Positions 2,969 to 62,044 of a DNA stretch of 64,000 nt are shown piece after piece (positions within the stretch are counted from its first letter, which is position 1; each line of letters starts with the position of its first letter). The stretch is taken from positions 34,339 to 98,338 of the forward strand of contig CAZQSY010000002.1 of the NCBI GenBank assembly GCA_964596395.1. Direction: 5' to 3'. A program made the position numbers and the translations under genes. The DNA is from an uncultured Candidatus Saccharibacteria bacterium. Lineage in GTDB: Bacteria; Patescibacteriota; Minisyncoccia; Phycocordibacterales; UBA9973. The notes beneath the pieces are model-generated. The model ran no database searches. It had not been told where the DNA came from and was given only the letters and a program-made list of their open reading frames with translations.

Positions 2969-3391
2969 TTATTTCTTTGCCTCTTTCGGCTTCTTGTTGC
3001 CGTATAGCGACCTTCCTTGGCGGCGCTTCTCAACTCCCTGAGTATCCAAGACCCCGCGCACGACGTGATAGCGAACCCCAATCAGGTCTTTCACGCGCCC
3101 TCCGCGAAGCACTACTACCGAGTGTTCCTGTAAATTGTGCCCTTCGCCGGGTATGTAAGCGGTAACCTCCATGCCGTTGGTAAGGCGCACTCTGGCGATT
3201 TTGCGGAGCGCCGAGTTCGGCTTTTTCGGAGTGGTAGTCGTGACTTTCGTGCACACTCCTCTCTTGAACGGAGAATAGTAGTAAACAGGTTTGTTTTTCA
3301 AGACGTTAAATCCGCGAGTAAGAGCCACCGTCTTGTCTTTGCGGTATGTTTTCTTCCTGCTTTTTTTGACTAGTTGGTTGATTGTCGGCAT
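2969..3391 (-). CDS. rpsL: 30S ribosomal protein S12
   Basis: 140 aa; [10 protein letters not shown]... [15 protein letters not shown] motifs. Confidence 0.95.
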
Positions 3392-3446
3392 TTATAAATA
3401 AAATAGTCCTCCTCGGACTTCGGGAGACAATATACTATTTAAGCGT

Positions 3447-4070
3447 CTAAATTGCAAGCCCCGTAACCAGATGGTAAGCCAGGGCAAGCACCGGATACAG
3501 ATAATCGGTGAAAAAAAACACAAAGACAAGCAGAAGCATGAGTGAGTAATTTTCCAAGAAAGAGACGAGCCCGTACATTGAATCAGGCAGGAGTGAGAAA
3601 AGTATTTTCGAGCCGTCCAGGGGCGGTATCGGCACCAGATTAAAAATCGCCAGACCCAGATTCACCAGAATAATGTAAGAAACGATGGAAAAGAAATCCG
3701 GCGATATGTTTTGCGCGCCAAGGGTGAAACGCAGTAAAATTCCGAACAGAACGGCAATAAGTATGTTCGCCAGCACTCCGGCCGCGGCCACGGCCAGGGT
3801 CCCCCATTTCTTGTTCGAAAGATTGTCGGGATTGTAAGGCACAGGGCGCGCCCAGCCGAAAAGAACCGGCGAATGCGTAATAACCAGAATGGCCGGCAAA
3901 ATAACCGAACCGAAAATATCCAGATGCTTCAGGGGATTTAAGGTAAGCCGCCCGGCATAAAGCGCTGTTTTGTCGCCAAAACGCAAAGCCACGAAACCGT
4001 GCGAGACCTCGTGGATGACCACCGACATTATGAGCACTGCTATGAAAAATATCGTATCGATACCCTGCAT
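3447..4070 (-). CDS. M50-family (site-2 protease-like) membrane metallopeptidase
   Basis: HEVSHG (HExxH) in a polytopic membrane protein, 207 aa. Confidence 0.65.
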   Translation of the reverse strand: MQGIDTIFFIAVLIMSVVIHEVSHGFVALRFGDKTALYAGRLTLNPLKHLDIFGSVILPAILVITHSPVLFGWARPVPYNPDNLSNKKWGTLAVAAAGVLANILIAVLFGILLRFTLGAQNISPDFFSIVSYIILVNLGLAIFNLVPIPPLDGSKILFSLLPDSMYGLVSFLENYSLMLLLVFVFFFTDYLYPVLALAYHLVTGLAI

Positions 4071-19237: not shown

Positions 19238-19384
19238 AATTATAAAGGCGCATTATAGATTTTTTTTGCTTTTCGTGCAACACTGGGTGAAGCAGAAAGT
19301 TACTTTTTCGAGCTGGTCTGGTTGAGCCCTGGAGGGGCGACCCGAGGACCCGAGAAAAAGCAACTTTCTGTGAAACCATATATA

Positions 19385-26910: not shown

Positions 26911-27744
26911 TTATTTTAACACCCTTTCGAATTCTTCCGGCAACGGCGATTTAACTTTTACCGTTTCGCCTTTTAAGTTTTTAAATTCAATGGAAAGCGC
27001 GTGGAGCATCATGCGGCCCTCTTCCCCGCGGGGATTATACAATTTATCCCCGACAATCGGATGATTGATGAATTTCATGTGCGCGCGAATCTGGTGCGTC
27101 CGGCCGGTCTTAGGGGAAATTTCTAGATAAGTAAAAACGCCCTCACCCCCTTTACTCCCCCCTCTCCAAAAAATTTTTTTGGAGAGGGGGCTAGGAGGTG
27201 AGGATTCCCCCGCCCTAACAAGGGAGGGGGTAAGGGGGAGGGTTACTCTTTTCAAGACCTTGTACTCGGTAACTGCCTCGCGCATTTCCCCGCGCGCGCC
27301 GCGCCCCGCCAGGCGCCGGCGGAAATCCCGCGGGCTCCGGCCGATCGGTTTATCTATTATGTCGTGGTCTTTCTTTATCAAGCCTTCAACTATTGCTACA
27401 TAAATCTTTTTTACCCTGTTTTGCTTGTCCGCCAACCCGCGCTTAGCAATTTCGAGCGCGGAGGCGGAAAACTGACTCTTCAAAAACTCGTGTGCCTTTT
27501 TATTTTTCGCCAAAAGTAAGACGCCCGAGGTTTCTCTATCTAACCGGTGCACCACCCCCGGTCTTTTTATTTCTTTCCCTTCCACAAAAATCGGCTCGCC
27601 GACATCTTTCGCTTCCGGATATTTTTTCAAAAACCAGTCGGAAATTGTCTCTTCCCCGCTTTTCCCATCAGGATGAACAGCCACACCCGAGGGTTTATCA
27701 ATCGCTAGAATATCCGAGTCTTCATAGAGGATTTTTATCTTCAT
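26911..27744 (-). CDS. rluD: RluA-family 23S rRNA pseudouridine synthase (RluD-like) carrying an in-frame insertion
   Basis: AIDKPSGVAVHP, HRLDRETSGVLLLAK, TGRTHQIRAH motifs; a Pro/Gly/Ser-rich loop of about 35 aa is encoded by a palindromic GC-rich segment. Confidence 0.9.
   Translation of the reverse strand: MKIKILYEDSDILAIDKPSGVAVHPDGKSGEETISDWFLKKYPEAKDVGEPIFVEGKEIKRPGVVHRLDRETSGVLLLAKNKKAHEFLKSQFSASALEIAKRGLADKQNRVKKIYVAIVEGLIKKDHDIIDKPIGRSPRDFRRRLAGRGARGEMREAVTEYKVLKRVTLPLTPSLVRAGESSPPSPLSKKIFWRGGSKGGEGVFTYLEISPKTGRTHQIRAHMKFINHPIVGDKLYNPRGEEGRMMLHALSIEFKNLKGETVKVKSPLPEEFERVLK
27136..27245. repeat. GC-rich palindromic (hairpin-forming) element inserted in-frame in rluD
   Basis: CCTCACCCCCTTTACTCCCCCCTCTCCAAAAAATTTTTTGGAGAGGGGGCTAGGAGGTGAGG is an imperfect palindrome, followed by CCCCCGCCCTAACAAGGGAGGGGGTAAGGGGGAGGG. 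Confidence 0.7.
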
Positions 27745-30529: not shown

Positions 30530-30868
30530 TTATTTTGCCCTGGTGCCAGCCGGAATTTTATCGTCGGGTTCCAGTAGAGAAAAATTTCCGTTGTCGTCCG
30601 AAAGGGCGAAAAGCATTCCGTTCGATTCAAGCCCGCGGATTACCCGCGGTTCGAGATTTGCCACAAACATGCATTTTTTTCCCGCCAGCACCGAGCAGTC
30701 GGGAAAATATTCAGAAATGCCCGAGACAATCTGCCGCGGCTCCGGCTCGCCCAGGTCAACCGAGAGCTTCAAGAGCTTCTCGGTGTCGGGAACTTTTTCG
30801 GCTGAAAGAATTTTCCCGACCGCAATTTCAACTTTTTTAAAATCTTCTAGAGTAATCATGTTTACCAA
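30530..30868 (-). CDS. tRNA-binding domain protein (CsaA/Trbp111-like)
   Basis: VGKILSAEKVPDTEKLLKLSVDLGE...QIVSG matches the OB-fold tRNA-binding domain. Confidence 0.75.
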   Translation of the reverse strand: MVNMITLEDFKKVEIAVGKILSAEKVPDTEKLLKLSVDLGEPEPRQIVSGISEYFPDCSVLAGKKCMFVANLEPRVIRGLESNGMLFALSDDNGNFSLLEPDDKIPAGTRAK

Positions 30869-30912
30869 GATTTTTGAAATATACTTTCTCGCAAGTGATA
30901 TTTCAAAAATCT

Positions 30913-31299
30913 TTACGTGTTTATTTTATCCAGATATCGCTGAAGTATCAAGGCCGCCGCGGAAGCATCTACCGGCTCGCCGTTATCCTGATAACGGCGA
31001 GCCTCTACCGAAGTCATAAATTCTTTTTGAAAATGAACCGGCAGAGAAAAATTCTTCCGCAGCTTTTCTGAAAACTCGCTGATTTCGCCCATTATTTCGT
31101 TGGCTCCTCCCGAGTAATCAAGCGATTCGCCTATCACAATCTGCGAAATACCCTCCTCGCTGATTATCTCCCCTGCGCGCTTCAGCGCATCCTTGCCGTT
31201 TCGCAAGACCTCTTTTGGGAATGCGAATTTCCCGCCCTCATCCGATAGGGCCAGGCCTATTTTCTTTTTCCCGTAATCAACGCCCAGGAACTTTCCCAT
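30913..31299 (-). CDS. ruvX: putative pre-16S rRNA nuclease / Holliday junction resolvase-like YqgF
   Basis: GVDYGKKKIGLALSD N-terminus, 128 aa. Confidence 0.85.
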   Translation of the reverse strand: MGKFLGVDYGKKKIGLALSDEGGKFAFPKEVLRNGKDALKRAGEIISEEGISQIVIGESLDYSGGANEIMGEISEFSEKLRKNFSLPVHFQKEFMTSVEARRYQDNGEPVDASAAALILQRYLDKINT

Positions 31300-31627: not shown

Positions 31628-32155
31628 TTGTGGTATACTGGATTAGTGCCTGAGGACTACAGAAGAAACCCAAATACTAGCTGTATAGTTTGCAAAAAGG
31701 CAATTTACAGAAGACCTAGTGAGATAGAAACCAATGAAGGACGGGTTTTTTGTAGTGTACTTTGTTACGGGATTGGTTGTAGAAAGGAAAAACCATGTTC
31801 AGTTTGCGGAAAACTAATCTTAGCAAGATTTAATAAAAAAACTTGCAGTAGAGGCTGCGCCAATAAACACAGGGAGGGTATTAAATACAAAATCGGCAGA
31901 CCTAAAGATAAAGCCGTAATGTTCAGAGCGTTGAAGTTGAGGTTGATGAGAGAAAGGGGTAAAAAATGCGAGCGTTGCGGCTACAGTAAGTATGAAATTT
32001 TGCAAGTGCATCATAAAAATAGAAATAGGTTGGACAATCGGACCGAAAACCTAGAGATAATTTGTCCTAATTGTCATTACGAGGAACATCTATTGAAGAA
32101 GAGCTGGCTTAACGATATTGTTGAAAAAGAGACAGAAAATAATATACTGGGCTAG
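31628..32155 (+). CDS. HNH endonuclease with N-terminal Cys-rich zinc-finger region
   Basis: CERCGY...LQVHHKNRNRLDNRTENLEIICPNCH HNH motif; AT-rich relative to neighbours. Confidence 0.8.
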   Translation: MWYTGLVPEDYRRNPNTSCIVCKKAIYRRPSEIETNEGRVFCSVLCYGIGCRKEKPCSVCGKLILARFNKKTCSRGCANKHREGIKYKIGRPKDKAVMFRALKLRLMRERGKKCERCGYSKYEILQVHHKNRNRLDNRTENLEIICPNCHYEEHLLKKSWLNDIVEKETENNILG

Positions 32156-32167
32156 AATTAATTAAAA

Positions 32168-32253
32168 GGAGGGTTGCGCCGAATGGTAAGGCACTTGTCT
32201 TGAAAACAAGCGGGCGAAAGCCCTTAGAGGTTCGAGTCCTCTACCCTCCGCCA
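32168..32253 (+). tRNA. tRNA-Ser (TGA), long variable arm
   Basis: GGAGGGT acceptor stem, anticodon loop CTTGAAA, encoded CCA. Confidence 0.8.
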
Positions 32254-32819: not shown

Positions 32820-33428
32820 ATGGCCCAAATAAAAATTCTTTTCGAGGGTTACGCCAAGAAGACCGAAGATGGCTGGGTGGCGAATTCGACCTGTTGTTTG
32901 ATTGAATCCGGCGGCCCGCCTGCGGAACGGGCAGGAAAAAAAATAATCACCGACCCGGGCTGTAACCGGGATTTGCTTCTGCGCGCTCTGGAAAAAGAAA
33001 AATTAAAAACAAGCGATGTTGATTTTGTTTTCCTCTCCCACCAGCACCCCGACCATATTCTGCTTGCCGGAATTTTTGAAAACGCAAAATACGTGACTTT
33101 CGACTCAAATCTGGCATACGATAGAGATAAACTTTTTGAGTTTGAAAAAAATATTCTGGGCGAAGATATAGAAATCATAGAAACCCCCGGCCACGTGCTC
33201 GAGCACCTTTCGCTTCTAGTAGACACCCCCGAAGGCAAAGTCGCCGTCGCGGGCGATGTTTTCTTCTGGCTCGACGGCGAAGAGCAGGTGGTAGATGTAA
33301 ACCGCATGGACCCGGCCGGGGCCAAAGGCATGGATATGAAAGCCCTGATTCAAAGCCGCAAGAAACTTTTGTCGCTCTCAGACCACATCATCCCCGGCCA
33401 CGGAAAAATGTTCAAAGTGGAAAAGTAG
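32820..33428 (+). CDS. MBL-fold metallo-hydrolase
   Basis: HQHPDH zinc-binding motif. Confidence 0.8.
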   Translation: MAQIKILFEGYAKKTEDGWVANSTCCLIESGGPPAERAGKKIITDPGCNRDLLLRALEKEKLKTSDVDFVFLSHQHPDHILLAGIFENAKYVTFDSNLAYDRDKLFEFEKNILGEDIEIIETPGHVLEHLSLLVDTPEGKVAVAGDVFFWLDGEEQVVDVNRMDPAGAKGMDMKALIQSRKKLLSLSDHIIPGHGKMFKVEK

Positions 33429-33446
33429 CGAAACTCGTTGAGGCGT

Positions 33447-33535
33447 AGCTTAAAAAGGGGGTTTGCCGAGTGGCGGCGAGGTAACTTCAGGAATTTTTAA
33501 GCTTCAAAAATTCCGTACCCTTTTTAAGCTACGCC
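33447..33535. repeat. structured repeat: 18-bp perfect inverted repeat enclosing a conserved 63-nt core (copy 1)
   Basis: GGCGTAGCTTAAAAAGGG ... core GGGGTTTGCCGAGTGGCGGCGAGGTAACTTCAGGAATTTTTAAGCTTCAAAAATTCCGTACCC ... CCCTTTTTAAGCTACGCC. Confidence 0.7.
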
Positions 33536-33568
33536 GATGAAGAGTTTCGTGATTCAAAGTAAAATATA

Positions 33569-34118: not shown

Positions 34119-34898
34119 ATGGTTCGTAAAACCTATAAAATTGACCTGAAGAACAAGGCGGAGGAACTAAGGAGAAATGGTTGTAGCTACAAGCAAATAT
34201 ACAACAGGTTAAAAATACCGAAGAGTACTTTATCCACTTGGTTCGGCTCTAAATATCCAGGTGTGTTTGACCGGAAAAAGCAGCTGGAGCACCTGGCTCG
34301 AGTAAGACTAATATCACTTAAAAGAAGAAAGGAGAAGAAAAATTTAGAACAATCAGAACTGGAAAGAAAAGTAGCCAGCGAAATAAGATATTACCCAACA
34401 CGAAATATAGGATTTTTAAAATCGGTGCTGTCTGCCTTGTACTGGGCAGAAGGAGGCAAGTATCGCGGAAGCCCGGTTGTTTTCACCAATACTGATCCAA
34501 AACTCGCAAAATTATTTATAACCTTACTAAGAAAATGCTATAGCGTAGACGAGAAAAAACTCAGAATACGCTTGCACTTGCATCATTATCATTCTGAGGA
34601 AAAAAGTAAAAGGTTCTGGTCAAGGTTACTTGATGTGCCCTTAAGTCAGTTTGGCAAAATTTACATAAAGAAAAGAAGTAACTCAAGAAAATTTAGAGAA
34701 AATTTTATGGGAATATGTTTTATAAAATATTATGATAATATGCTTCAGAAAGAAATAATGGTCCTGGCAAACCAATTATCTGAGAAAATAACATGCCCCC
34801 GTAGTTCAATGGATAGAACACGACTTTGCGGAAGTCGTGATGCAGGTTCGATTCCTGCCGGGAGCACCACAATAAAGCTAGAAACAGCAGAGTTTTAG
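34119..34898 (+). CDS. HTH-containing homing-endonuclease-like protein (possible LAGLIDADG-type); the ORF reads through the downstream tRNA-Arg
   Basis: N-terminal HTH (CSYKQIYNRLKIPKSTLSTW); LSALYWAEGGKY...VVFTNTD resembles a single LAGLIDADG motif; no in-frame stop before the tRNA gene. Confidence 0.35.
   Translation: MVRKTYKIDLKNKAEELRRNGCSYKQIYNRLKIPKSTLSTWFGSKYPGVFDRKKQLEHLARVRLISLKRRKEKKNLEQSELERKVASEIRYYPTRNIGFLKSVLSALYWAEGGKYRGSPVVFTNTDPKLAKLFITLLRKCYSVDEKKLRIRLHLHHYHSEEKSKRFWSRLLDVPLSQFGKIYIKKRSNSRKFRENFMGICFIKYYDNMLQKEIMVLANQLSEKITCPRSSMDRTRLCGSRDAGSIPAGSTTIKLETAEF
34794..34868 (+). tRNA. tRNA-Arg (GCG), one acceptor-stem mismatch
   Basis: GCCCCCGTAGTTCAATGGATAGAAC..., anticodon loop TTGCGGA, encoded CCA. 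Confidence 0.65.
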
Positions 34899-36047: not shown

Positions 36048-38489
36048 ATGAACAAATTTATGAATAAAACAAAAAAATCGTTAGTGAGTTTGATGTTAGG
36101 CGTTTTGGTCGTTACCGGCCTTTTCGGCGTTTCAAACGCTGGAACTGCTGAAGCAGCGACAAGCTCAGTAAATTCTACCGGCATGAGTTCCCTCACCTGC
36201 GACAGCGTAAAGTTTTGGGGCTATATCAACACCGGCTCGGCTTCAAGCACATACCCGGTAAAGGCTTGGTTTGAATATGGCACGAACGAAAATGAAGTGC
36301 TTTATGGTTCAGCGAACAATATTAAAACTCCTCAACCGCCTTTCGGACCTTACACTTCGGCTTTTCAAAATATAAGAGTGGAACAGCCAGTAACCGGCCT
36401 TACTCCGCAAACCACTTACCACATGAACCTAGTGGCAAGTATGCGCATTAACGGTACTTGGTACGACGTCAGAGGAAATTATGTAGATACCTTCACCACC
36501 CCCGCCTGCCCGGTTACTGCTAAATACACCGTCACTTCTTCGGCGACCGTGGGCGGATTTATTAGCCCGAACGGAGCGCAGACGGTAAACGAAGGAAAAA
36601 TTTTGAGCTTTTACGCTTCTCCGAATAAGGGATACTCCGGCCCGGTTTTTGGCGGAACCTGCGGAGGAAATTCGAGCGGAAACAATTACACCACCAAACC
36701 GATAACTAAGGATTGTTCGGTAACGGCCACCTTCACCAAGGCGCCGGCCGTAACTTATACCCTTTCGGTAAATAAAATCGGCAAAGGATTCGTCAACGGA
36801 AGCGGAATCAATTGCGGCGGCGCTTGCCAAATCACCAAGAATGCGGGCGAGACCGTAAGTTTGTCAGCTTCTCCAGATAACGGATACACTTTCTCGGGCT
36901 GGTCGGGCGCGTGCTCTGGCACCGGCTCTTGCTCTGTCACCATGAACAGCAACAAATCGGTAACGGCGACCTTTAATGTTTTAAAACCTAATGCCACCTT
37001 GACCGTTTACCCTGAGAATGTTTCTTACAACGGCAATGCGGCACTCACTTGGAATTCAAAGAACGCGACCTCCTGCCAAGGCATCGGCTTTGATACAGCC
37101 GGCGCTGTCTCTGGAAAGAAAGTTCTCGCCAATCTTACGGCTACTAAGACATATAAAGTAACCTGCACGGGTGAGGGTGGCAGCGCTTCGGCTGAAGCGA
37201 TGGTAACCGTGGGAAACCCGGCCAACCCGAGCGTTGATTTCTACGCTACCCCGAACCCGGTTGATTACGGAAAGAGCGCGACCCTAAGCTGGTCTTCAAA
37301 GAATGCCACCGTCTGCACCGCTTTCGGCGCATGGTCTGGCAAGAAAGGAATTTCAGGCACGGCTTCTACCGGCGCGCTGACCTACACTAAAACCTACACT
37401 ATAAAGTGCGAAGGAAATTACGGAACCAACCCGGCTGTGAAAACGGTAAGGGTAGAAGTAAATCCTGAAATTATAATCCTGAAGCCGACGGTCTCTTTGA
37501 CTGCTTTCCCTGAAAGCATTCAGTATGGCGGATACTCTGCGCTTAAGTGGACTTCAAAGAACGCCGATTCTTGCACGAGCAACGATTTCGCCACCGGCGG
37601 AGCCGTGAACGGCTCTAAGGTAGTTTCCCCTTCTTCGACCGAGACCTACACCATCACCTGCACGGGCGAGGGCGGCAGCGCAGAAGACAGCGCCACCATT
37701 ACTGTGGGCGCCCCGTCTCATCCGGCGGTCTCTTTCTCGGCCAATCCTTATAAAATTTACTCCGGCGAATCCTCTACGCTGGCCTGGTCTTCAAGTAAGG
37801 CAAAATACTGCGTAGCAGGAGGCGCGTGGGCTGGTAAGAAAGGAATTTCTGGCTCGGCTTCTACTGGAGAGCTCTACAAAGACAGCACTTATTCAATAGT
37901 TTGCTACGGCGCAGACGGCACTACACCGGCCCGGGCAGAACTTACAGTTCGCGTGATAGAAAAACCGGAACCGCCGAAAGCTCTCCCGAAAGTAGACCTT
38001 AGGGTAAACGGCGTAAACGGACCGGTGAGCATCCCGCATATAAACGAGGGTGCTACTCTGACCTGGACTTCTGAGAACGCCGACCGATGCGAGACATTAA
38101 ACGGAGCCAACGGTTGGCAGAACCAGAGGAATTGGAAGACAGAAGGAGAATTCCAGACCGGCTCATTGCAGAGCGGAAAGACCTTCAGGATAATCTGCCA
38201 CAACAGCGCCGGCTCGGCTACCGACACGGTAAGAATCATAGTTGAAGATAAAATCTGCGCCCCGACTGCCACCTTAAACGCCACCAAGAGAAGCGAGCAG
38301 GACGGCGGAGGATACATATTGAGATGGTCTTCGACTTACGCTGACTCTTGCAAAGCGGATTGGACCAACAGCACCGCTCCAGAAGGCAAGAAATCCGTGC
38401 ACCCCGACAAGACAACTACTTACAAAATAACTTGCACCGGCCCGGGAGGCACCGTCACTGCCTACACCACGGTGAATCCGGCGAATTAA
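36048..38489 (+). CDS. large secreted repeat protein (813 aa) with InlB-B-repeat-like and Ig-like Cys-pair domains
   Basis: signal peptide; repeated modules of about 100 aa L.W.S.NA..C...G.W.G.K...G...TG.L..TKTY.I.C.G; YTLSV..GKGFV.GSGINCGG.C...GETVSL.A.P..GYTFSGWSGAC...C.V.M...KSVTATF matches the Listeria/Bacteroides (InlB B) repeat. Confidence 0.85.
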   Translation: MNKFMNKTKKSLVSLMLGVLVVTGLFGVSNAGTAEAATSSVNSTGMSSLTCDSVKFWGYINTGSASSTYPVKAWFEYGTNENEVLYGSANNIKTPQPPFGPYTSAFQNIRVEQPVTGLTPQTTYHMNLVASMRINGTWYDVRGNYVDTFTTPACPVTAKYTVTSSATVGGFISPNGAQTVNEGKILSFYASPNKGYSGPVFGGTCGGNSSGNNYTTKPITKDCSVTATFTKAPAVTYTLSVNKIGKGFVNGSGINCGGACQITKNAGETVSLSASPDNGYTFSGWSGACSGTGSCSVTMNSNKSVTATFNVLKPNATLTVYPENVSYNGNAALTWNSKNATSCQGIGFDTAGAVSGKKVLANLTATKTYKVTCTGEGGSASAEAMVTVGNPANPSVDFYATPNPVDYGKSATLSWSSKNATVCTAFGAWSGKKGISGTASTGALTYTKTYTIKCEGNYGTNPAVKTVRVEVNPEIIILKPTVSLTAFPESIQYGGYSALKWTSKNADSCTSNDFATGGAVNGSKVVSPSSTETYTITCTGEGGSAEDSATITVGAPSHPAVSFSANPYKIYSGESSTLAWSSSKAKYCVAGGAWAGKKGISGSASTGELYKDSTYSIVCYGADGTTPARAELTVRVIEKPEPPKALPKVDLRVNGVNGPVSIPHINEGATLTWTSENADRCETLNGANGWQNQRNWKTEGEFQTGSLQSGKTFRIICHNSAGSATDTVRIIVEDKICAPTATLNATKRSEQDGGGYILRWSSTYADSCKADWTNSTAPEGKKSVHPDKTTTYKITCTGPGGTVTAYTTVNPAN

Positions 38490-38521
38490 CATCACCCGAT
38501 TATTAATTATTAATTAAAATT

Positions 38522-41500
38522 ATGAAAATCAGCGCAACAATAAAAGTAGGGGTCATCGGTCTGGCTATCGTCGCGGGTGTCTCGTTCGCCAAAACGGCAG
38601 ACGCTACCACCAACTGCTACTCGAACTGCCTGCCGAGCCCGACGGTTTCTATATCGGCCAAGCCGGTATACATAAAGTACAAAGAGTCCTCGGTCATAAC
38701 CTGGTCTTCGCGAAACGCCACCCGCTGTACCGCCATCGGCGGAATCAACGGATGGGCGAAAGAAAGACCGACCTCGGGAACCTTTAATACCGGAAGTTTG
38801 ACCAGCTCAAAGTCATACACTATCACCTGCTACAACGGGTCAAGGTCTGCGACCAAATCAGTGAGAGTGTTTGTCTCGGGCAACACTAACGATGACGATG
38901 ATGACAATGACGACAATGATGATGACGATGATATCTGTCTTCCGACGGTAAACCTAACCGCCGACAGAACTACAATAAACGCGGGAGAAAGCGTGGTCTT
39001 GAAGTGGACTTCAAAAGACGCGAAATCCTGCAGCGCCACCTGGACGGAAAGCAAAGCGACTTCGGGAACCAAAACGGTGTCTCCGAACAAAACGGTCACC
39101 TACTCTATATCCTGCACCGGTGAAGGCGGCAAAGAAAACGACAGTGTAAAAATAATCGTGAAGAACACGGAACCACCGGTTGAGAATCCTTCGGTAGAAC
39201 TTTCTGCCGATGATTCAAGCGTGCCTTACAACGGTTCTACTACACTAAGATGGGAATCAGAAAACGCCACTTCTTGTACTGCGAGCGGCGGAGCGAACGG
39301 ATGGCTGGGGTCTAAGGCCTTAGACGGTTCTTTCGCAACCGGAGATTTAAAGAGCACAAAGACATACACCATCACTTGCTACGGTAATGGAAAGTCAGCC
39401 AGTGATTCGGTGACGGTGTCGGTGGGAGATAAACCCATTGAATTGCCTACGGTCAACATAACAGCCGACGAAACCGAAATTTCTTACAACACAGGAACTA
39501 TTCTGCGCTGGACTTCGGAAAACGCGACTTCGTGCTACGCGAGCGGTGGATGGAGCGGTTCTAAAAATACAAATGGCTCCGCTTCTACCGGCAATTTAAT
39601 TTCTACTAAAACATACAAAATTACCTGCACCAATGAAGACGGCGACGCCACTGATTCAGTAACGGTATCGGTGGGCAATCAGCCGCCTATACCTTCTCCG
39701 AGCGTAGAAATCAGCGCTGAAGATGATAGCGTGCCTTACGACGGTTCTACCACAATCACCTGGGAATCAGAGGACGCGACCTCGTGCTACGCGAGCGGCG
39801 CTTGGTCGGGGTCAAAGGGCCTTAATGGTTCTTTCCCAACTGGCAGCTTAAAGAGCACTAAAACATACAAGATAACCTGTCATAACGGCAACAAGTCAGC
39901 CGAGGATTCGGTAACGGTATACGTCGGCAATAAACCCCCCGTTGAACTTCCTTCGGTAGAACTTTCTGCCGATGATTCAAGCGTGCCTTACAACGGTTCT
40001 ACTACACTAAGATGGGAATCAGAAAACGCCACTTCTTGTACTGCGAGCGGCGGAGCGAACGGATGGCTGGGGTCTAAGGCCTTAGACGGTTCTTTCGCAA
40101 CCGGAGATTTAAAGAGCACAAAGACATACACCATCACTTGCTACGGTAATGGAAAGTCAGCCAGTGATTCGGTGACGGTGTCGGTGGGAGATAAACCCGA
40201 AACACCCACGAGACCAACCGCGCGGCTTTCTATAACTCCGACCACAGTAAAAAGGGGCGGACACGCGGTGCTTACCTGGTATTCGACAAACACTACTTCC
40301 TGCGAGGCATCTTGGCTCCCGAACTCTTCAACTTCGGGTTCCAAAACTGTTTTCCCTGAAGAAAACACTACCTACACTATTATCTGCACCGGTCCGGGCG
40401 GAGATGTGACTGAATCGGCAGAGGTAAGCGTAAAGGACTCTACTACCCCGCCCCAGGAAGAAATCTACGTTGAAATCGACGCAGATGAAAGCGAAATATC
40501 TGAAGGCGAATCAACCTACATAAATTGGTATTCGGAAAACGCGACTTCCTGCGCTGCAAGCGGCGGAACGAGCGGATGGGCAGGATACAGAGATACTTCC
40601 GGCAGTTTCTACACCGGCGACCTGTCAAGCACGAAGACATATTCAATCAGATGCTCAAACGGAAGCAGACAGTCAAGCGCTTCGGTGACCGTATACGTCG
40701 ATGAAGACAGTAACAACGGAGGCGACGAAGAACCGAGCGTCAGTACCAGGTCAGCCACGGATATAGAAGACGACCGAGCAACCCTAAACGGCTTCGTTGA
40801 TTCAAACGACGGTGGAGACGTTGAGGCATGGTTTGAGTGGGGCGAAGACGAAGATATGGAAGATACTACTTCGCGCGTGAGTTACGGAAATACTTCGGGT
40901 ACGGATTTTGATTACGAATTGGACGGCCTAGATGAAGACACTACCTATTACTTCCGCGCGGTTGCCGAGAATGAAGACGGCGACAAGGTGTACGGCAGTA
41001 TGAAATCGTTCACCACCGATGAAAACGGGGGCGGCGGAAGCGGTGATGAGCCAAACGTCACCACTTACTCGGCTGAAGATGTCGACGATGAATCAGCCAT
41101 GCTTTCAGGGTATGTAGATACCAACGGCGAGAAGACCAGGGTATGGTTCGAATGGGGCGAGAGAAGCGGCGACCTCTACGAGGAAACCGACAAATCAAGC
41201 TACAGCTCGAGTTCGCGTAACTTTGACGAAACGATTTACGACCTTGAACCCGACACCACCTATTACTTCCGCGCCATGGCGGAAAACCAGGACGGAGACA
41301 TAGACCGCGGGAATGTGCGTTCTTTTAGAACCGATGAAAACGGCAACCGTTTCCGCGACAACGAATGCGATTACGGAGAATGCGCACCGACAGCTGTAAC
41401 CACTCTGGTTACCAATGTGGGCCAGTCGAGCGCCCGCTTGAACGGACTCGGGTTGTCTAGCGACTACTCTTCAATGAGCGGACACTTTGAATGGGGAACC

Positions 41501-42319
41501 ACGCCTGCTCTCGGCTTCACTACAGTGCACAAAGGAATCGGAAGTGGCGGGTCAAACACGTTCTACGAAAGCTTGTTTAATCTGGTGCCGAACAGAATCT
41601 ATTACTATCGCGCGGTGGTTGAAAACGAATACGGCGAATCCGAAGGAGATATTCTCTCGTTCAAAACATTGTCGCCGCAGGTAGTAATTGACACCCCGGT
41701 AATTTATCGGAACACTACGGTAGTGACCACCTCTAGCCGAACTGGCACAGGCAGGCCTTCGCTGGTGTTCCTTTCCGTATCTGGAAATGATGAAATAATC
41801 CGCCGGGGCGAATATGTAGAGTACGCAATAGAATACAAGAATGTCTCTTCTGAAGACCTGAGAGATGTGGTATTGAGGGTTTCAATTCCCAAAGAACTTG
41901 AGTTCGTAGAGGCAAGCCGAGGATACTTCTCTGAAGAAAACAGCATGCTCGTCGTAAATATCGGAGACCTCTTCCCGCAGGAAGAAGGAAGCATTCTGAT
42001 AACGGTACGAGTGGATGAAAGCGCTGAAATCGGCAAAATAGTGGTGGTAACGGCAAACCTCGCTTACACCATTGACGACACCGATGTGCAAGAAGAAGTG
42101 TTCGCCTACTCAAAGAACACAGTAGAACTGGCAAGGAGGGTAAACATGGGCGGTTTGGCCTTTCTCTTCGGAGACGGCTTCCTGCCGGGTTCTCTCTTGG
42201 GTTGGCTCTTGCTTCTGCTTCTCATTGTCCTCATAATCCTTGCTTTGAGAAAAGCATTCAAGAGGGACGGCGAGAATAGAACCGTCATAAATACCGCGGA
42301 CCACACCGAGCATCATTAA
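38522..42319 (+). CDS. giant cell-surface protein (1265 aa): Ig-like repeats, poly-Asp tract, FN3-like repeats, DUF11/CARDB-like domain, C-terminal TM anchor
   Basis: signal peptide; at least 8 Ig-like Cys-pair repeats; WFEWG...TTYYFRA.AEN..G repeats; C-terminal LLGWLLLLLLIVLIILAL anchor. Confidence 0.85.
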   Translation: MKISATIKVGVIGLAIVAGVSFAKTADATTNCYSNCLPSPTVSISAKPVYIKYKESSVITWSSRNATRCTAIGGINGWAKERPTSGTFNTGSLTSSKSYTITCYNGSRSATKSVRVFVSGNTNDDDDDNDDNDDDDDICLPTVNLTADRTTINAGESVVLKWTSKDAKSCSATWTESKATSGTKTVSPNKTVTYSISCTGEGGKENDSVKIIVKNTEPPVENPSVELSADDSSVPYNGSTTLRWESENATSCTASGGANGWLGSKALDGSFATGDLKSTKTYTITCYGNGKSASDSVTVSVGDKPIELPTVNITADETEISYNTGTILRWTSENATSCYASGGWSGSKNTNGSASTGNLISTKTYKITCTNEDGDATDSVTVSVGNQPPIPSPSVEISAEDDSVPYDGSTTITWESEDATSCYASGAWSGSKGLNGSFPTGSLKSTKTYKITCHNGNKSAEDSVTVYVGNKPPVELPSVELSADDSSVPYNGSTTLRWESENATSCTASGGANGWLGSKALDGSFATGDLKSTKTYTITCYGNGKSASDSVTVSVGDKPETPTRPTARLSITPTTVKRGGHAVLTWYSTNTTSCEASWLPNSSTSGSKTVFPEENTTYTIICTGPGGDVTESAEVSVKDSTTPPQEEIYVEIDADESEISEGESTYINWYSENATSCAASGGTSGWAGYRDTSGSFYTGDLSSTKTYSIRCSNGSRQSSASVTVYVDEDSNNGGDEEPSVSTRSATDIEDDRATLNGFVDSNDGGDVEAWFEWGEDEDMEDTTSRVSYGNTSGTDFDYELDGLDEDTTYYFRAVAENEDGDKVYGSMKSFTTDENGGGGSGDEPNVTTYSAEDVDDESAMLSGYVDTNGEKTRVWFEWGERSGDLYEETDKSSYSSSSRNFDETIYDLEPDTTYYFRAMAENQDGDIDRGNVRSFRTDENGNRFRDNECDYGECAPTAVTTLVTNVGQSSARLNGLGLSSDYSSMSGHFEWGTTPALGFTTVHKGIGSGGSNTFYESLFNLVPNRIYYYRAVVENEYGESEGDILSFKTLSPQVVIDTPVIYRNTTVVTTSSRTGTGRPSLVFLSVSGNDEIIRRGEYVEYAIEYKNVSSEDLRDVVLRVSIPKELEFVEASRGYFSEENSMLVVNIGDLFPQEEGSILITVRVDESAEIGKIVVVTANLAYTIDDTDVQEEVFAYSKNTVELARRVNMGGLAFLFGDGFLPGSLLGWLLLLLLIVLIILALRKAFKRDGENRTVINTADHTEHH
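38891..38934 (+). repeat. imperfect (GAT/GAC)n codon repeat encoding a poly-Asp/Asn tract
   Basis: GATGACGATGATGACAATGACGACAATGATGATGACGATGAT. Confidence 0.8.
39178..39432 (+). repeat. intragenic direct repeat copy 1 (about 250 bp, identical to copy 2)
   Basis: CCTTCGGTAGAACTTTCTGCCGATGATTCAAGC...GGTGGGAGATAAACCC recurs without visible mismatches. Confidence 0.85.
39947..40201 (+). repeat. intragenic direct repeat copy 2
   Basis: identical by eye to 39178-39432; encodes one whole Ig-like module. Confidence 0.85.
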
Positions 42320-42333
42320 TTTAACAGATAAAA

Positions 42334-42378
42334 ATAAAAACCCTCCCTGTTTCGGGGAGGGTTTTTTATTTTTTAATA
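42334..42378. terminator. bidirectional intrinsic terminator
   Basis: AAAAACCCTCCCtgtttcGGGGAGGGTTTTTTATTTTTT. Confidence 0.8.
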
Positions 42379-42834: not shown

Positions 42835-43425
42835 GTGTATAATACCGGCATGATAGGAAGCATCAGGGGCAAAATCACCTGGAAAGACGAAAAATCGGCT
42901 GTAGTAGAAGCCGGGGGAGTCGGCTACAACGTAAACCTGCCCGAGAGCACCGCCGGCGGACTTGAAAAAGACGGGGAGGTGTTCCTTTGGGTGCATACTC
43001 ATGTGCGCGAAGATATGCTTGATTTGTATGGTTTCGCTGAGAGAGAAGAATTGGCATTTTTTGAAATGCTCCTCGGTGTGCCCGGGGTCGGGCCAAAAGG
43101 GGCACTGAATGTATTGAATATCGCGCCGGTAAAGACCCTGAAGAGAGCGGTGAGTTCGGGAGACCTCGCGTACTTGACCAAGATATCGGGGATAGGAAAG
43201 AAAACGGCGGAAAAAATAATCTTGGAACTGCGCGACAAAGTCGCGGACGGCGAAGACAAAAAAGAAACCAGCGCGGGAATGCGCGAGGAAATCGACGCGC
43301 TGGAAGCGCTCAAATCGCTCGGCTATTCGCAGCAGGAAGCGAGAGACGCGCTGAAAAAGACAAACAGCCCGGATACAAACGCGAAAGTGCGCGAGGCACT
43401 GAAAGTTTTAAATAATCATGCCTGA
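42835..43425 (+). CDS. ruvA: Holliday junction DNA helicase RuvA
   Basis: MIGSIRGKI...VGY.V N-terminus, HhH region, C-terminal domain. Confidence 0.9.
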   Translation: MYNTGMIGSIRGKITWKDEKSAVVEAGGVGYNVNLPESTAGGLEKDGEVFLWVHTHVREDMLDLYGFAEREELAFFEMLLGVPGVGPKGALNVLNIAPVKTLKRAVSSGDLAYLTKISGIGKKTAEKIILELRDKVADGEDKKETSAGMREEIDALEALKSLGYSQQEARDALKKTNSPDTNAKVREALKVLNNHA

Positions 43426-44362
43426 ACTCCCGGAAGTTGAAACTACAGTCAGAGGTTTGCAAGAAACCATCGCGGGGTTCCGCATCAAAGACGTTTGGAC
43501 GGACCTCAAAACCAAAGATAAAAGAAAAAAAGACACCGTCGCCGACCCGAAGTATTTCAAACTGTTCAGAAAAGAAATCATGGGCAAGAAGATTCTCTCG
43601 GCGGAAAGGCGAGCTAAAAATGTCCTGATAAATCTGTCGGCAAACAAAACCATCCTCGTACATATGAAGATGACGGGGCACCTGCTGTACGGAAAATACA
43701 AACTCAACCCCTCCCCGACCCTCCCCTTATCAAGGAGAGGGAGGAGGGTGGGGTCTTGGGCACCTGTAGGAAAAGATAGCCCTCTCAGCGACCCGTTCAA
43801 TCGTTTCGTGCATGTTGTGTTCACGCTCTCAAACGGCAAACATTTGGCCTTTTCTGACGCCAGGAAATTCGGAAAAATAACCCTGCTCGATACCAAAACC
43901 GCGCATGATACAAAACACCTGTACGGCATCGGCCCGGAACCATTGGACAAAAATTTTAAGCTGGAGGATTTTACACAGAGGTTAAGCGCATGCAAAAACA
44001 AAAAAATAAAAACCTCGCTGACCGACCAAAGCGTAATTGCCGGCATCGGAAATATTTATTCTGACGAAATTCTCTGGCGCGCTAACGTGCATCCAGAAAG
44101 AAAAGCGGGCTCGCTAAAAAATAAAGAGTTGTCGCTCATATTCAAAGCGATGAAAAAGACCCTCGCCAAAGGAATTAATTTCGGCGGGGATTCTATGTCT
44201 GATTATCGAAACATCCACGGCCTGCCGGGCAAATTTCAGCTGCACCACGAGGCCTATCGGCGCAAGGGAGAAAGATGCAGAAAGGAGAGTTGTAAAGGAA
44301 TAATTTTAAGAAAAGTAATAAACGGCCGTAGCGCGCACTTCTGCTCGGTACACCAGAAGTGA
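43418..44362 (+). CDS. mutM: formamidopyrimidine-DNA glycosylase (Fpg/MutM) with an in-frame insertion
   Basis: MPELPEVE N-terminus, C-terminal zinc finger; about 25 extra aa (NPSPTLPLSRRGRRVGSWAPVGKD) encoded by a GC-rich palindromic segment. Confidence 0.9.
   Translation: MPELPEVETTVRGLQETIAGFRIKDVWTDLKTKDKRKKDTVADPKYFKLFRKEIMGKKILSAERRAKNVLINLSANKTILVHMKMTGHLLYGKYKLNPSPTLPLSRRGRRVGSWAPVGKDSPLSDPFNRFVHVVFTLSNGKHLAFSDARKFGKITLLDTKTAHDTKHLYGIGPEPLDKNFKLEDFTQRLSACKNKKIKTSLTDQSVIAGIGNIYSDEILWRANVHPERKAGSLKNKELSLIFKAMKKTLAKGINFGGDSMSDYRNIHGLPGKFQLHHEAYRRKGERCRKESCKGIILRKVINGRSAHFCSVHQK
43700..43760. repeat. GC-rich palindromic element inserted in-frame in fpg
   Basis: CCCCTCCCCGACCCTCCCCTTATCAAGGAGAGGGAGGAGGGTGGGGTC. 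Confidence 0.7.
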
Positions 44363-44465
44363 AAAACAAATTTTGGAGGGGTTTGCCGAGCGGCGGCGAG
44401 GCAACTTCAGGAATTTTTAAGTTTCAAAAATTCCGTACCGGAAAAATTTTGTTTTTCACTTCTGG
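44351..44465. repeat. structured repeat: 24-bp perfect inverted repeat enclosing the conserved 63-nt core (copy 2); the arms are the last codons of the convergent genes fpg and trmH-like
   Basis: ACCAGAAGTGAAAAACAAATTTT ... core GGGGTTTGCCGAGCGGCGGCGAGGCAACTTCAGGAATTTTTAAGTTTCAAAAATTCCGTACC ... AAAATTTTGTTTTTCACTTCTGGT. Confidence 0.7.
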
Positions 44466-44941
44466 TATAAAACCCTAAACAAAACGACTCCAAGAGCCAC
44501 AGAAACATTCAGGGATTCCTTTCGCCCGCGCATCGGGATTTCGGCGATTATGTCGCATTTTTTTAAAATATTTTTCGGTATGCCTGTCACTTCGGCGCCA
44601 ACAACAAAAACGTTCCGGTCTCTTATTTTTACTTTTTTATAATCTATGGACTGTTTGTGTTGCTCAACACCAATAATCAAACTTCCCTCTTTTTTAAGCT
44701 TAGTTAACAGAGAAGTGATATTCTTCTTTTGTTCCCAAGGCACAAACTCTTCGGCCCCCAACGCGGATTTGGCTAGGTCCTTTCTCTTCCGGCCAAAACG
44801 GTCAGTGGGCGCGGGCGTGTATCCTGTGAGGTAAATTTTATTTATTCCCGCCGCGTCGGCCGTGCGAAACATCGCGCCGACGTTAAGAACGCTGCGCACA
44901 TTGTGTATTATTAAAACATTAGAAAAGTTTTCCTTGGACAT
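44456..44941 (-). CDS. SpoU/TrmH-family RNA 2'-O-methyltransferase
   Basis: 161 aa; SPOUT-fold glycine-rich motifs (NVGAMFRTADAAG, IIGVEQ). Confidence 0.75.
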   Translation of the reverse strand: MSKENFSNVLIIHNVRSVLNVGAMFRTADAAGINKIYLTGYTPAPTDRFGRKRKDLAKSALGAEEFVPWEQKKNITSLLTKLKKEGSLIIGVEQHKQSIDYKKVKIRDRNVFVVGAEVTGIPKNILKKCDIIAEIPMRGRKESLNVSVALGVVLFRVLYQK

Positions 44942-45564: not shown

Positions 45565-46845
45565 CTATTTTATGAAGTTTTTGCCCCGTGCCTTTTTGTG
45601 GTAGGCGATCGCGAAGCGATGCGCCTCGCTGTTAGCCAATAAAATCTCTTTTTTATACTTCTCTGCCAATTTCCTGTCGCCTAAAATTTCTTTTGGCTGA
45701 TGTCTCTCGTCTTTCAGAACCGAAACTACATCAATATCCAGGTTGAATTTTGATATTACTCCACGCGCGGCATTTAACTGGGCGGTCCCGCCGTCCGTAA
45801 CCATCAAGTCAGGAAATTTCCACTCTGCGTGCGCAAAACGGCGCGAAAGAACTTCCGCGAGCGCGCCGGTGTCGTTAGAATTTTCTTGCGTTCTTATCTT
45901 GAATTTCCTGTATTCATTTTTCGCAACTTCCCCTTCTTCTACGACAACCATAACCCCGACCATGCTTTTACCGTTCATGTGAGCGATATCGTAGGCCTCT
46001 ATCCTCTTAATTCCGGCTCGAGTGCTTCCGGACTCACCACGAAAATTTTCTGCTAAAAATTTTCTCTGTCCGTCGCCGTCGCTCCTACCAAGGGTTCGCT
46101 CGTAAGCACCCGAGCCTCTATTATTAAGTAGAGCCACATCGTTTATGTGCCTCAAAGAGAATATCTGTTTTTTTATTTCCCCTGCCCGCTCGAAATCTTG
46201 GGCCTTGGCTGATTTTTTCATTTGCTTCTCAAGGTTCTCGAGAACTTTTTTCTTTTTGCCTTCAAAAAACAAAACCAAGTTTTTTAAATTTTCTTTGTAT
46301 ACTTTTATGCCGTCAGGAAAAGAAACATCGGGCACCAGACCTATTTGTCTGTAAAACGTGTAAACATTCAGAGATTTTGCGTCAAGGAAAGGAAATACCG
46401 GCCGAATAATTTTAAGCGCCAGTCTAAGGTCTCCCCCGCTGGGATACGGCCCGAAAACTTTTTTGAATGCGTGGTGCCTGATGTCTTTTCCCCGTACAAC
46501 TAAAACTTGGGGAATTTTTTCCGAGGTTATGCCGACATGATTAAAGCTGGTGTCTGATTTTTCTTTTGTATTGTATTTGGGCTGGTGTTTTTTTATGAGT
46601 TCCGCTTCAAGAATTAGCGCTTCGAGCACGCTGTCGGTCTTCTGCCAAGAAATCTTGTCTGCCTTTGAAATTAAATCAACTAAAATCGGTCCGCGGGTTT
46701 CTATCAAATCTTTGCCGAAATAACTTTTAATTCTGTCTTTGAGAGATGTGGCCTTGCCTACGTATAAAATTTCTTTTCCCTTCTTGAAAAAGTACACGCC
46801 CGGCGTGTCTGGAATTTTCAATTTCTTGAATTCCTCTGATTTCAT
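45565..46845 (-). CDS. uvrC: excinuclease ABC subunit C (short form, 426 aa)
   Basis: N-terminal GIY-YIG (GVYFFKKGKEILYVGKA...E) plus RNase-H-like endonuclease domain; no C-terminal HhH. Confidence 0.8.
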   Translation of the reverse strand: MKSEEFKKLKIPDTPGVYFFKKGKEILYVGKATSLKDRIKSYFGKDLIETRGPILVDLISKADKISWQKTDSVLEALILEAELIKKHQPKYNTKEKSDTSFNHVGITSEKIPQVLVVRGKDIRHHAFKKVFGPYPSGGDLRLALKIIRPVFPFLDAKSLNVYTFYRQIGLVPDVSFPDGIKVYKENLKNLVLFFEGKKKKVLENLEKQMKKSAKAQDFERAGEIKKQIFSLRHINDVALLNNRGSGAYERTLGRSDGDGQRKFLAENFRGESGSTRAGIKRIEAYDIAHMNGKSMVGVMVVVEEGEVAKNEYRKFKIRTQENSNDTGALAEVLSRRFAHAEWKFPDLMVTDGGTAQLNAARGVISKFNLDIDVVSVLKDERHQPKEILGDRKLAEKYKKEILLANSEAHRFAIAYHKKARGKNFIK

Positions 46846-54532: not shown

Positions 54533-54671
54533 GATATTTTGGCTTTGCGAAATTTGTCGCAGGCGTACTTTTTAGAAGGCCTTGGGAGGAGCGACGGCGA
54601 CGGACAGAGAAAATTTTTAGCAAAAAATTTTCGTGCCTGATAAAAAGTATGCCAAGAAAGAATTTCGCAAG

Positions 54672-61869: not shown

Positions 61870-62007
61870 ATGAATTACGACGACGATGAATTAAAAGACA
61901 CAGAAGAAGGCATCGGCGAACCGCCGGAAGGCGAAGAATTCGACCCGGGAGAGGAAGTAGCGGGATACGAAGACGAAGAAGGAATCGGGGAAGATAAGGA
62001 TATGTAA
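61870..62007 (+). CDS. possible small highly acidic protein (45 aa)
   Basis: MNYDDDELKDTEEGIGEPPEGEEFDPGEEVAGYEDEEGIGEDKDM, followed directly by a terminator; below the ORF-track cutoff. Confidence 0.2.
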   Translation: MNYDDDELKDTEEGIGEPPEGEEFDPGEEVAGYEDEEGIGEDKDM

Positions 62008-62044
62008 CTAAAAACCCTCCGCCATAAGCGGAGGGTTTTTAGTT
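62008..62044. terminator. bidirectional intrinsic terminator
   Basis: AAAAACCCTCCGCcataaGCGGAGGGTTTTTAGTTTT. Confidence 0.8.

Follow-up and report, generated by a model that had tools for sequence, protein, structure and literature searches.

A 64,000-nucleotide (nt) stretch of contig CAZQSY010000002.1 (GenBank assembly GCA_964596395.1), which comes from an uncultured Candidatus Saccharibacteria bacterium of the Candidate Phyla Radiation (CPR) and is referred to here as the window, carries two copies of a 62-nt core, each forming the tip of its own long inverted repeat. [quoted passage not shown] Copies are found between genes, in either orientation, and also within housekeeping genes, in frame and without closing the reading frame; the conserved feature is the fold of one particular strand, and the element itself we infer to be mobile. 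CPR bacteria account for a large share of bacterial diversity, and their noncoding and repeat content is almost undescribed; a full-text literature search found no palindromic or MITE-like element, and no matching RNA motif, described for them.

Family members in the window

The two cores, at 33458-33519 and 44378-44439 on the + strand, are identical at 59 of 62 positions (three differences), and shuffled sequence indicates that no such match is expected by chance. An earlier note on this DNA had reported the duplicated core with its three mismatches; the sequence was right, whereas the coordinates were off by about 7 to 8 nt for copy 1 (given as 33465-33527) and by 1 to 2 nt for copy 2.

Copy 1 is a full-length element of the type we call A (33429-33549, + strand; covariance-model match 33444-33533, 95.9 bits) and begins directly 3′ of the TAG stop codon (33426-33428) of a metallo-beta-lactamase-fold gene. 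Its stem P1 is the perfect 18-bp inverted repeat already noticed (33442-33459 / 33518-33535), followed outward by a purine-rich internal loop, GUUGA / GAUGAA (33437-33441 / 33536-33541), and a 7-bp outer stem (33430-33436 / 33542-33548). Within the core, a three-way junction at 33458-33519 (+), we assigned P2 (GUUUGCC-GA-GU-[GGCG]-GC-GA-GGUAAC), the joining strand J2/3 (UUCA), P3 (GGAAUUUUU-AAGCUUC-AAAAAUUCC), and J3/1 (GUA). The 9-bp hairpin GGAATTTTT/AAAAATTCC and the GCCG/CGGC pairing first proposed for the core are both present, but a longer P2 suits the family better (GUU-(U)-GCC / tandem G.A / GC-[GRCG]-GC / GGYAAC). A Logan contig from the same sample (L015; loci are designated by L numbers throughout) ends 87 nt past the metallo-beta-lactamase-fold gene, roughly where copy 1 lies; the repeat appears to break short-read assemblies.

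Copy 2, also A-type (44352-44466, + strand; model match 44364-44453, 97.7 bits), fills the spacer between two convergent genes: fpg, encoding formamidopyrimidine-DNA glycosylase (43418-44362, + strand; C terminus ...HFCSVHQK*), and a gene for a SpoU/TrmH-like methyltransferase (44456-44941, - strand), with its final codons (YQK*) in the right arm of the element. The arms (44352-44374 / 44443-44466), described before as 24 perfect bp, comprise 19 perfect bp, a 1-nt bulge, and 4 further pairs. Both stop codons do lie inside them (fpg TGA, 44360-44362; SpoU, 44456-44458, - strand), as had been claimed, although the coding part is not eight residues' worth of DNA but ~11 nt per arm, which cover QK, the stop, and a fragment of one more codon.

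The covariance model recognizes four family members in the window, two A-type and two B-type. One B-type member (54545-54670, + strand) is divergent, lies between two - strand genes, and is antisense to both; it was matched at 54564-54651 (+) with 39 bits and an E value of 2.6e-9, and with 59 bits in another model search. Its outer architecture is that of copy 1, with a GUCGCA / AAGAAA loop and a GGCGUACUUUUU arm, and its core is UUGGGAGGAGCGACGGCGACGGACAGAGAAAAUUUUUAGCAAAAAAUUUUCGUG. The other (46015-46116, - strand; model match 46023-46108, -) sits in sense orientation within a uvrC-like gene (45565-46845, - strand).

A family across CPR genomes

A scan pattern derived from the junction strands (GAGGNAACTTCAGG N18-32 CCGTACC) was run against genomes, one per species, and against metagenome contigs. 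True copies accounted for 11 of the 13 genome matches and for 33 of the 42 contig matches, some contigs repeating one locus. All 11 genome copies are from CPR/Patescibacteria (Saccharibacteria, Nomurabacteria, Adlerbacteria, or Paceibacterota), and the metagenome copies likewise. A covariance model built from 29 distinct copies found additional ones in the loci that we fetched, with three in a 13-kb span of L047 and a pair in L006 separated by 400 nt. The two in L006 (1662-1752 and 2131-2222) share one orientation and bracket a single 117-amino-acid (aa) gene with a Glucodextran_B-like domain. The best relatives of the window's Fpg and UvrC are in metagenome-assembled genomes (MAGs) of Nomurabacteria, Minisyncoccia, and Paceibacterota, the closest Fpg being 76% identical. 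Pattern scans and BLASTN found no copy in viral contigs, phage records, or plasmids.

That the duplication arose by chance, or is an assembly artefact, can for practical purposes be dismissed: no chance matches are expected, and the search for further copies of the core turned up dozens, found independently in assemblies from different studies.

A conserved, strand-specific fold

Each element consists of a long hairpin, P1, with the three-way junction as its cap; hairpin lengths are ~100 to 137 nt across the family, and copies 1 and 2 both fold far better than shuffled sequences (z scores of -6 to -8). P2 generally consists of GUU-(U)-GCC, tandem G.A/A.G pairs, a 2- to 4-bp stem, and a GRCG loop, and the joining strands are conserved (J2/3, UUCA; J3/1, GUA). 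P3 is a hairpin of 9 to 11 bp, A/U-rich where the genome is A/T-rich and of the sequence GGCGAUUUCGC... in Adlerbacteria, which are G+C-rich. Immediately beneath the junction, most copies show a symmetric, purine-rich loop (GGA/GGA), and in many the 3′ arm bulges by 1 nt about 8 pairs outward of that loop. One subfamily, which includes copy 1 and the B-type copy at 54545-54670, continues with an outer loop, 5′-GUYGA / 3′-GAxRAA, and then another stem.

Covariance analysis across copies supports this fold. With a MAFFT alignment that was not fitted to the structure, 91.5% of cells were paired, compared with 78% when shuffled and 35 to 57% when partners were slid, and both sides change in 16 of 28 pairs. 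The corresponding values for the model-fitted alignment of 37 copies were 93.2%, 75.7%, and 38 to 57%, with changes on both sides in 22 of the 28 pairs. Furthermore, the fold belongs to one strand, given that G.U pairs outnumber A.C (105 versus 26) and purine-purine mismatches outnumber pyrimidine-pyrimidine (196 versus 57) in the arms of 35 copies. Copies in two strains of one species (L030, 681-770; L045, 1596-1685), whose flanking gene is 99% identical at third positions, have arms that differ by exactly two substitutions, both exchanges between G.U and A-U.

Strong covariation, the excess of G.U over A.C, and substitutions that keep pairing between L030 and L045 are all in keeping with a structured RNA motif that works for its host in cis or in trans. 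In such a motif, the three-way junction would either be catalytic or serve as the binding site of a conserved CPR protein, the long stem would act in processing, stability, or termination, and selection would keep the copies at each locus. We judge such a motif unlikely on other grounds. The orientation of copies with respect to neighboring genes is random: nine are antisense to both (--), seven divergent (-+), seven sense to both (++), and six convergent (+-), and the ORFs (open reading frames) that flank the antisense cases are real genes (prfA, miaA, murA-like, pyrH, and map). No sigma-70-like promoter was found upstream of copies 1 and 2, and the arms, which abut or overlap the flanking genes, leave no space for one. 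Searches of Rfam 15 with both copies, at gathering thresholds and at E values up to 10, returned only spurious matches to microRNA precursors (long hairpins), far below threshold. In addition, four A-type copies inside genes have their well-folding strand antisense to the mRNA, and the element is multicopy and is present or absent at orthologous sites, as described below.

The same observations, namely the lack of a promoter upstream of copies 1 and 2, random orientation, and copies in coding sequence, contradict the proposal in the earlier note that a small RNA gene sits in the loop of preexisting terminator hairpins. We also rejected the intrinsic terminator (a G+C-rich stem of 5 to 20 bp, a small loop, and a U tract) as an identity for the element, given the absence of a proper terminator at the copies and the presence of copies inside ORFs. 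A terminator scan detected no terminator-like site at copy 1; its matches at copy 2 were confined to one inner stem of the element, 5 bp long, and one site outside the element. The long hairpins between genes nevertheless probably act as 3′-end or terminator structures, a putative role. ARAGORN finds no tRNA or tmRNA at the elements, and the D-arm-like GCCGAGYGG belongs to no tRNA. The joining strands do not match hammerhead, twister, or similar ribozyme cores, which likewise have no Rfam match here.

Copies within housekeeping genes

A-type copies occur inside the genes for TsaD (L013), MnmA (L005), an IscS-like cysteine desulfurase (L011), and a LepA-like GTPase (L057). Compared with solved homologues, TsaD, MnmA, and IscS have an insert of 25 to 41 residues exactly at the element, and its size is that of the whole hairpin, arms included, which means that no earlier hairpin existed at those sites. 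All four copies are antisense to the gene and in the same reading frame, and they have in common the peptide SGYGDFxAxKSPEVASPxLGKPPP. The L057 contig changes frame at a point upstream of the element. At these four loci it is the strand antisense to the mRNA that folds well, with more G.U than A.C, and this, together with the random orientation of copies in general, argues against a function at the level of mRNA.

The B-type copy in uvrC (46015-46116, - strand) is a 102-nt hairpin equivalent to 34 codons without a stop (GSGAYERTLGRSDGDGQRKFLAENFRGESGSTRA) and occupies the linker that joins the UVR domain to the RNase-H-like domain. With the reading frame open in every in-gene copy, the copies would stay in the mRNA and be translated, as in Rickettsia. 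A 44-aa profile of the element peptide gave one insignificant match in a word-indexed protein database, and HMMER, run with the B-type peptide against 1.8 billion representatives, returned only low-complexity repeat proteins and two spurious 61-aa ORFs.

Arms and gene ends

The earlier note regarded the flanks of the two cores as unrelated to each other, and for copies 1 and 2 this is correct; family-wide it does not hold, as the core-proximal parts of the arms form conserved classes. An inner arm reading GGCRTAGCTTT... is common to copy 1, L004, L024, and L029, and copy 2 has an inner arm similar to those of L045 and L047. Farthest out, the arms appear to be local sequence and are unrelated from copy to copy; only core-proximal parts are shared within subfamilies. 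Because they are shared across genomes, these core-proximal parts belong to the element.

Gene ends at copy 2 tell the two arms apart. The coding part of the left arm is native, given that Fpg ends in ...HQK in 74 of 120 orthologues, and the suggestion that the fpg terminus derives from the element does not stand. SpoU orthologues end in KI*, NL*, GL*, or DV*, compared with YQK* in the window, and the sequence encoding YQK* is the exact inverted complement of the end of fpg. The idea of a mobile element that supplies new 3′ ends to genes therefore survives in part: the repeat is dispersed, multicopy, and present or absent at orthologous sites, and the SpoU end is new, whereas that of fpg is not.

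L067 presents the same picture inside uvrC. Its left arm encodes the native, conserved LLKQENF, and its right arm, an inverted copy, encodes KNFLVSGA; the arms are 22 perfect bp on either side of the core, and palindromic AAAATTTT is found on both sides, both direct and inverted. In TsaD, the arms end at conserved codons on either side. We therefore suggest that outer arms may arise by inverted copying of one flank. After insertion, the hairpin would nucleate further palindrome growth, with intrastrand template switching, a mechanism known from quasi-palindrome mutagenesis in Escherichia coli, or arm-to-arm conversion copying one flank, inverted, to the other side until constrained codons are reached. 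Such growth would explain why outer arms are near perfect and yet unrelated between copies, as well as the pairing of a native HQK* in fpg with an acquired YQK* in SpoU.

The native fpg codons in the left arm of copy 2 and the perfect arms of L067, one of them encoding native LLKQENF and with the center AAAATTTT on either side of the core, could also be expected if a short mobile core inserted into the loops or centers of existing hairpins or palindromes, such as terminators, so that all arm sequence would be the host's. Some UvrC orthologues read LLKQENFPVS in the linker, which a core-less palindrome could encode (judged from protein sequence), and the genome is rich in perfect, terminator-like palindromes of 16 to 20 bp. 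As a general account we find this improbable. In TsaD, MnmA, and IscS, the complete hairpin is extra with respect to solved homologues, leaving no target hairpin there, which also goes against the preexisting hairpins assumed in the earlier note; core-proximal arms and the outer internal loop are conserved across genomes and hence the element's own; and the A/T-rich arms are unlike the genome's G+C-rich terminators. For part of the data, namely L067 and the orthologues that seem to have a core-less palindrome, targeting of the core to hairpin loops is possible.

Occupied and empty sites

Presence or absence of the element at orthologous positions could be followed at two sites. At the fpg/spoU junction, L064 is empty, with the two genes overlapping by 20 nt (3293-3312). 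L016 carries an A-type relative with different arms, which again span both stop codons. L019 (3424-3651), along with L020 and L017, has two adjacent long-hairpin elements, the first a family member on the opposite strand (3440-3527, - strand; E value of 6e-6) and the second (GCGCAGGCUGACGAGCCGAGC...) on the fpg strand and unscored by the model; the latter looks like a more distant relative.

At the uvrC site, we compared the linker between the motifs HINDVA and RIEAYD among 120 orthologues. The linker is 11 to 17 aa long in ~25 of them and 42 to 50 aa long, with the B-type peptide, in ~19, which include the closest relatives of the window; the remainder have other inserts of ~20 to 40 aa. In L067 (uvrC 301-1530), L068 (301-1587), and L069 (301-1554), the linker inserts are also long hairpins, with different cores. 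Different lineages carry at this one spot no fewer than four distinct hairpin elements whose cores are unrelated. The linker looks like a hot spot for palindromic inserts.

Mobile repeat or functional fold

The mobile-repeat interpretation would have the element spread, now or in the past, as DNA via a single-stranded intermediate that is obliged to adopt the three-way-junction fold, which would explain the conserved core and covarying stems whatever the host context. No protein gene travels with it: among the 149 ORFs within 1.5 kb of copies, Pfam searches revealed no recurrent partner family, only housekeeping genes.

Several observations weigh against a mobile repeat. Copies 1 and 2 are flanked by inverted, not direct, repeats, and no direct target-site duplication is evident at them. 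Neither a transposase nor a reverse transcriptase nor any other mobilizing gene was found among the 149 flanking ORFs, whole genomes not having been searched. We saw no fresh insertion, that is, no near-identical genomes differing by one copy. The template switch that would make the outer arms is a step that we infer. The A-type core is ~90% identical across different classes of Patescibacteria, which requires strong constraint or horizontal spread. Finally, there is the uvrC copy, which the window, L063, L064, and L065 have in common by orthology. In the rest of the gene, these UvrC proteins are 63 to 75% identical and third codon positions are 40 to 51% identical; the core is 91 to 97% identical at the nucleotide level and 91 to 100% identical at third positions, and its few changes are compensatory (GAGCGACGGCGAC, GAGUGACGACGAC, and GAGUGGCGACGAC). 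The arms are 44 to 83% identical, with pairing kept. Third positions preserved in the core of a gene that is otherwise saturated indicate that the core is held constant as nucleotide sequence, by selection or by homogenization. Peptide-level selection cannot explain this constancy, and it is unlike the behavior of a decaying selfish insert: there is purifying selection or homogenization at the locus.

It is mainly because of the constant uvrC core that we keep a functional reading in play, as a tentative possibility. Under it, the three-way junction would be more than a selfish repeat's recognition module: it would be a functional single-stranded element, selected locus by locus and common to much of the CPR, which builds its palindromic stem from neighboring host sequence, even in essential genes. 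It could be a new class of RNA, catalytic or protein binding, or else DNA whose fold serves as a signal in recombination, uptake, or priming. For the RNA motif considered above, too, the sense-oriented uvrC copy speaks in favor, with its conserved synonymous sites and compensatory changes, as does the fact that, at the orthologous fpg/spoU site, the window and L016 have kept the core although their arms are unrelated.

Alternatively, the family might be a molecular-drive signal of the DNA-uptake or recombination type found in naturally competent bacteria, read as folded single-stranded DNA in transformation and kept and spread across the CPR by biased uptake or recombination. The element resembles such signals only in pattern: it has a high copy number in both orientations, intergenic hairpins together with tolerated frames in genes, conservation at orthologous sites, no linked gene, and near identity across CPR classes. 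Known uptake sequences are 9- to 12-nt double-stranded DNA motifs without intrastrand covariation, however, and a folded core of 62 nt exceeds a binding word by far in complexity; we consider this explanation very improbable.

Relation to known elements

RPE-1 to RPE-10 are palindromic repeats of ~100 to 150 bp in a host-dependent bacterium with a reduced genome; they are dispersed between genes and, unusually often, in frame within housekeeping genes unrelated to one another, each family codes for a conserved peptide, and no transposase is associated with them (PMC10969869). The CPR element matches this description in being palindromic, multicopy, dispersed, and ~100 to 137 nt long, in lying in frame in TsaD, MnmA, IscS, LepA-like, and UvrC genes, and in the A-type peptide SGYGDFxAxKSPEVAS. 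The likeness is probably best taken as an analogy by description, not as membership, as the hosts are of different phyla. The CPR element differs in being best conserved at the hairpin tip, the covarying three-way junction, in having outer arms that are variable and partly host derived, and in a core whose conservation extends over whole classes and, in uvrC, to synonymous sites.

The family would be the second, independent case, after Rickettsia, of palindromic elements colonizing the genes of a reduced, host-dependent genome, which suggests that the phenomenon accompanies this lifestyle. It adds loops of 25 to 40 residues to conserved enzymes (TsaD, MnmA, IscS, LepA-like, and UvrC), rewrites 3′ ends of genes, and breaks assemblies, and so is relevant to the annotation and binning of CPR genomes. 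A core constant at synonymous sites, combined with arms apparently made from the flanks, also offers a system for asking whether such an element is selfish or functional and how palindromes grow.

Classical MITEs such as Correia/NEMIS, ERIC, and Nezha are similarly small, noncoding, multicopy, hairpin forming, and found in either orientation, and MITEs can supply stop codons or fuse with ORFs. Their terminal inverted repeats are conserved and their interior varies, they show direct target-site duplications, and they derive from an insertion sequence (IS) element. In the CPR element this arrangement is reversed, with a conserved center and variable ends, and no parent IS was detected among the 149 flanking ORFs, whole genomes again not having been searched. 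Repetitive extragenic palindromic (REP) sequences, bacterial interspersed mosaic elements (BIMEs), and REPINs, which REP-associated tyrosine transposases (RAYTs) mobilize, are comparable as high-copy palindromes that fill spacers in both orientations and have a strand-specific feature recognized on single-stranded DNA. REPs are simple imperfect hairpins of 20 to 40 nt with a GTAG or CGTC tag, are extragenic only and species specific, and are accompanied by a RAYT gene; the CPR core, by contrast, is a 62-nt three-way junction with copies inside genes, and there is no Y1 transposase in its loci, judged from the same 149 ORFs.

Quasi-palindrome template switching in E. coli and arm conversion in large palindromes resemble the proposed origin of the arms in the one-step perfecting of inverted repeats and in the inverted copying of a flank. 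The likeness would fit both YQK* of SpoU against HQK* of fpg and KNFLVSGA against LLKQENF in L067, although template switching is known as a mutational mechanism and not as a feature of a repeat family.

Two further candidates were rejected. Integron attC sites have conserved outer R″/R′ boxes (RYYYAAC / GTTRRRY), a variable center, and an arrangement in cassette arrays; the CPR element has a conserved center and variable outer arms, forms no cassette array, and has no integrase among the 149 ORFs flanking its copies. TIGR arrays, which occur in CPR bacteria and their phages, consist of stem-loops that give rise to box C/D-like guide RNAs, and their variable palindromic stems around a loop with conserved short motifs recall our element (PMC12045711). 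TIGR units are tandem, lie beside a Tas gene, and hold variable spacers in the loop, whereas the CPR copies are single, dispersed, and without spacers, have an invariant 62-nt core, and show no Tas (Nop-domain) neighbor among those 149 ORFs.

Other features of the window

A second pair of sequences in the window, 19293-19370 and 50726-50833, has a common core (GGUCUGGUUGAG ... GGCGACCCGAGGACCYGAGAAA) between long, mutually unrelated inverted repeats. The core holds a GA-flanked hairpin of the GGG-GCGA-CCC type, folding z scores are about -4 to -5, and neither of our covariance models (R1 and R2) detects the pair, of which the first member lies just upstream of an ORF beginning at 19386. These sequences look like a third family of the same architecture. 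Perfect palindromes of 16 to 18 bp with tiny loops occur at 27158-27190, 42330-42372, 62006-62044, and 30867-30913 (e.g., AAAAACCCTCCC...GGGAGGGTTTTT) and look like bidirectional terminators; long perfect hairpins are thus common in this genome even without the core.

About 600 nt 3′ of copy 1, a 259-aa ORF (34119-34898), whose 3′ end overlaps a tRNA-Arg gene (34795-34869), has a weak match to a Sleeping-Beauty-type helix-turn-helix; this falls below the Pfam cutoff, and the ORF is unconvincing as a transposase. An HNH endonuclease ORF (31628-32155) adjoins a tRNA-Ser gene (32168-32253). Two very large ORFs (813 and 1,265 aa; 36048-42319) contain internal repeats of ~250 to 260 nt, some of them 98 to 100% identical (39171-39436 and 39933-40198), and look like genes for repeat-domain surface proteins.

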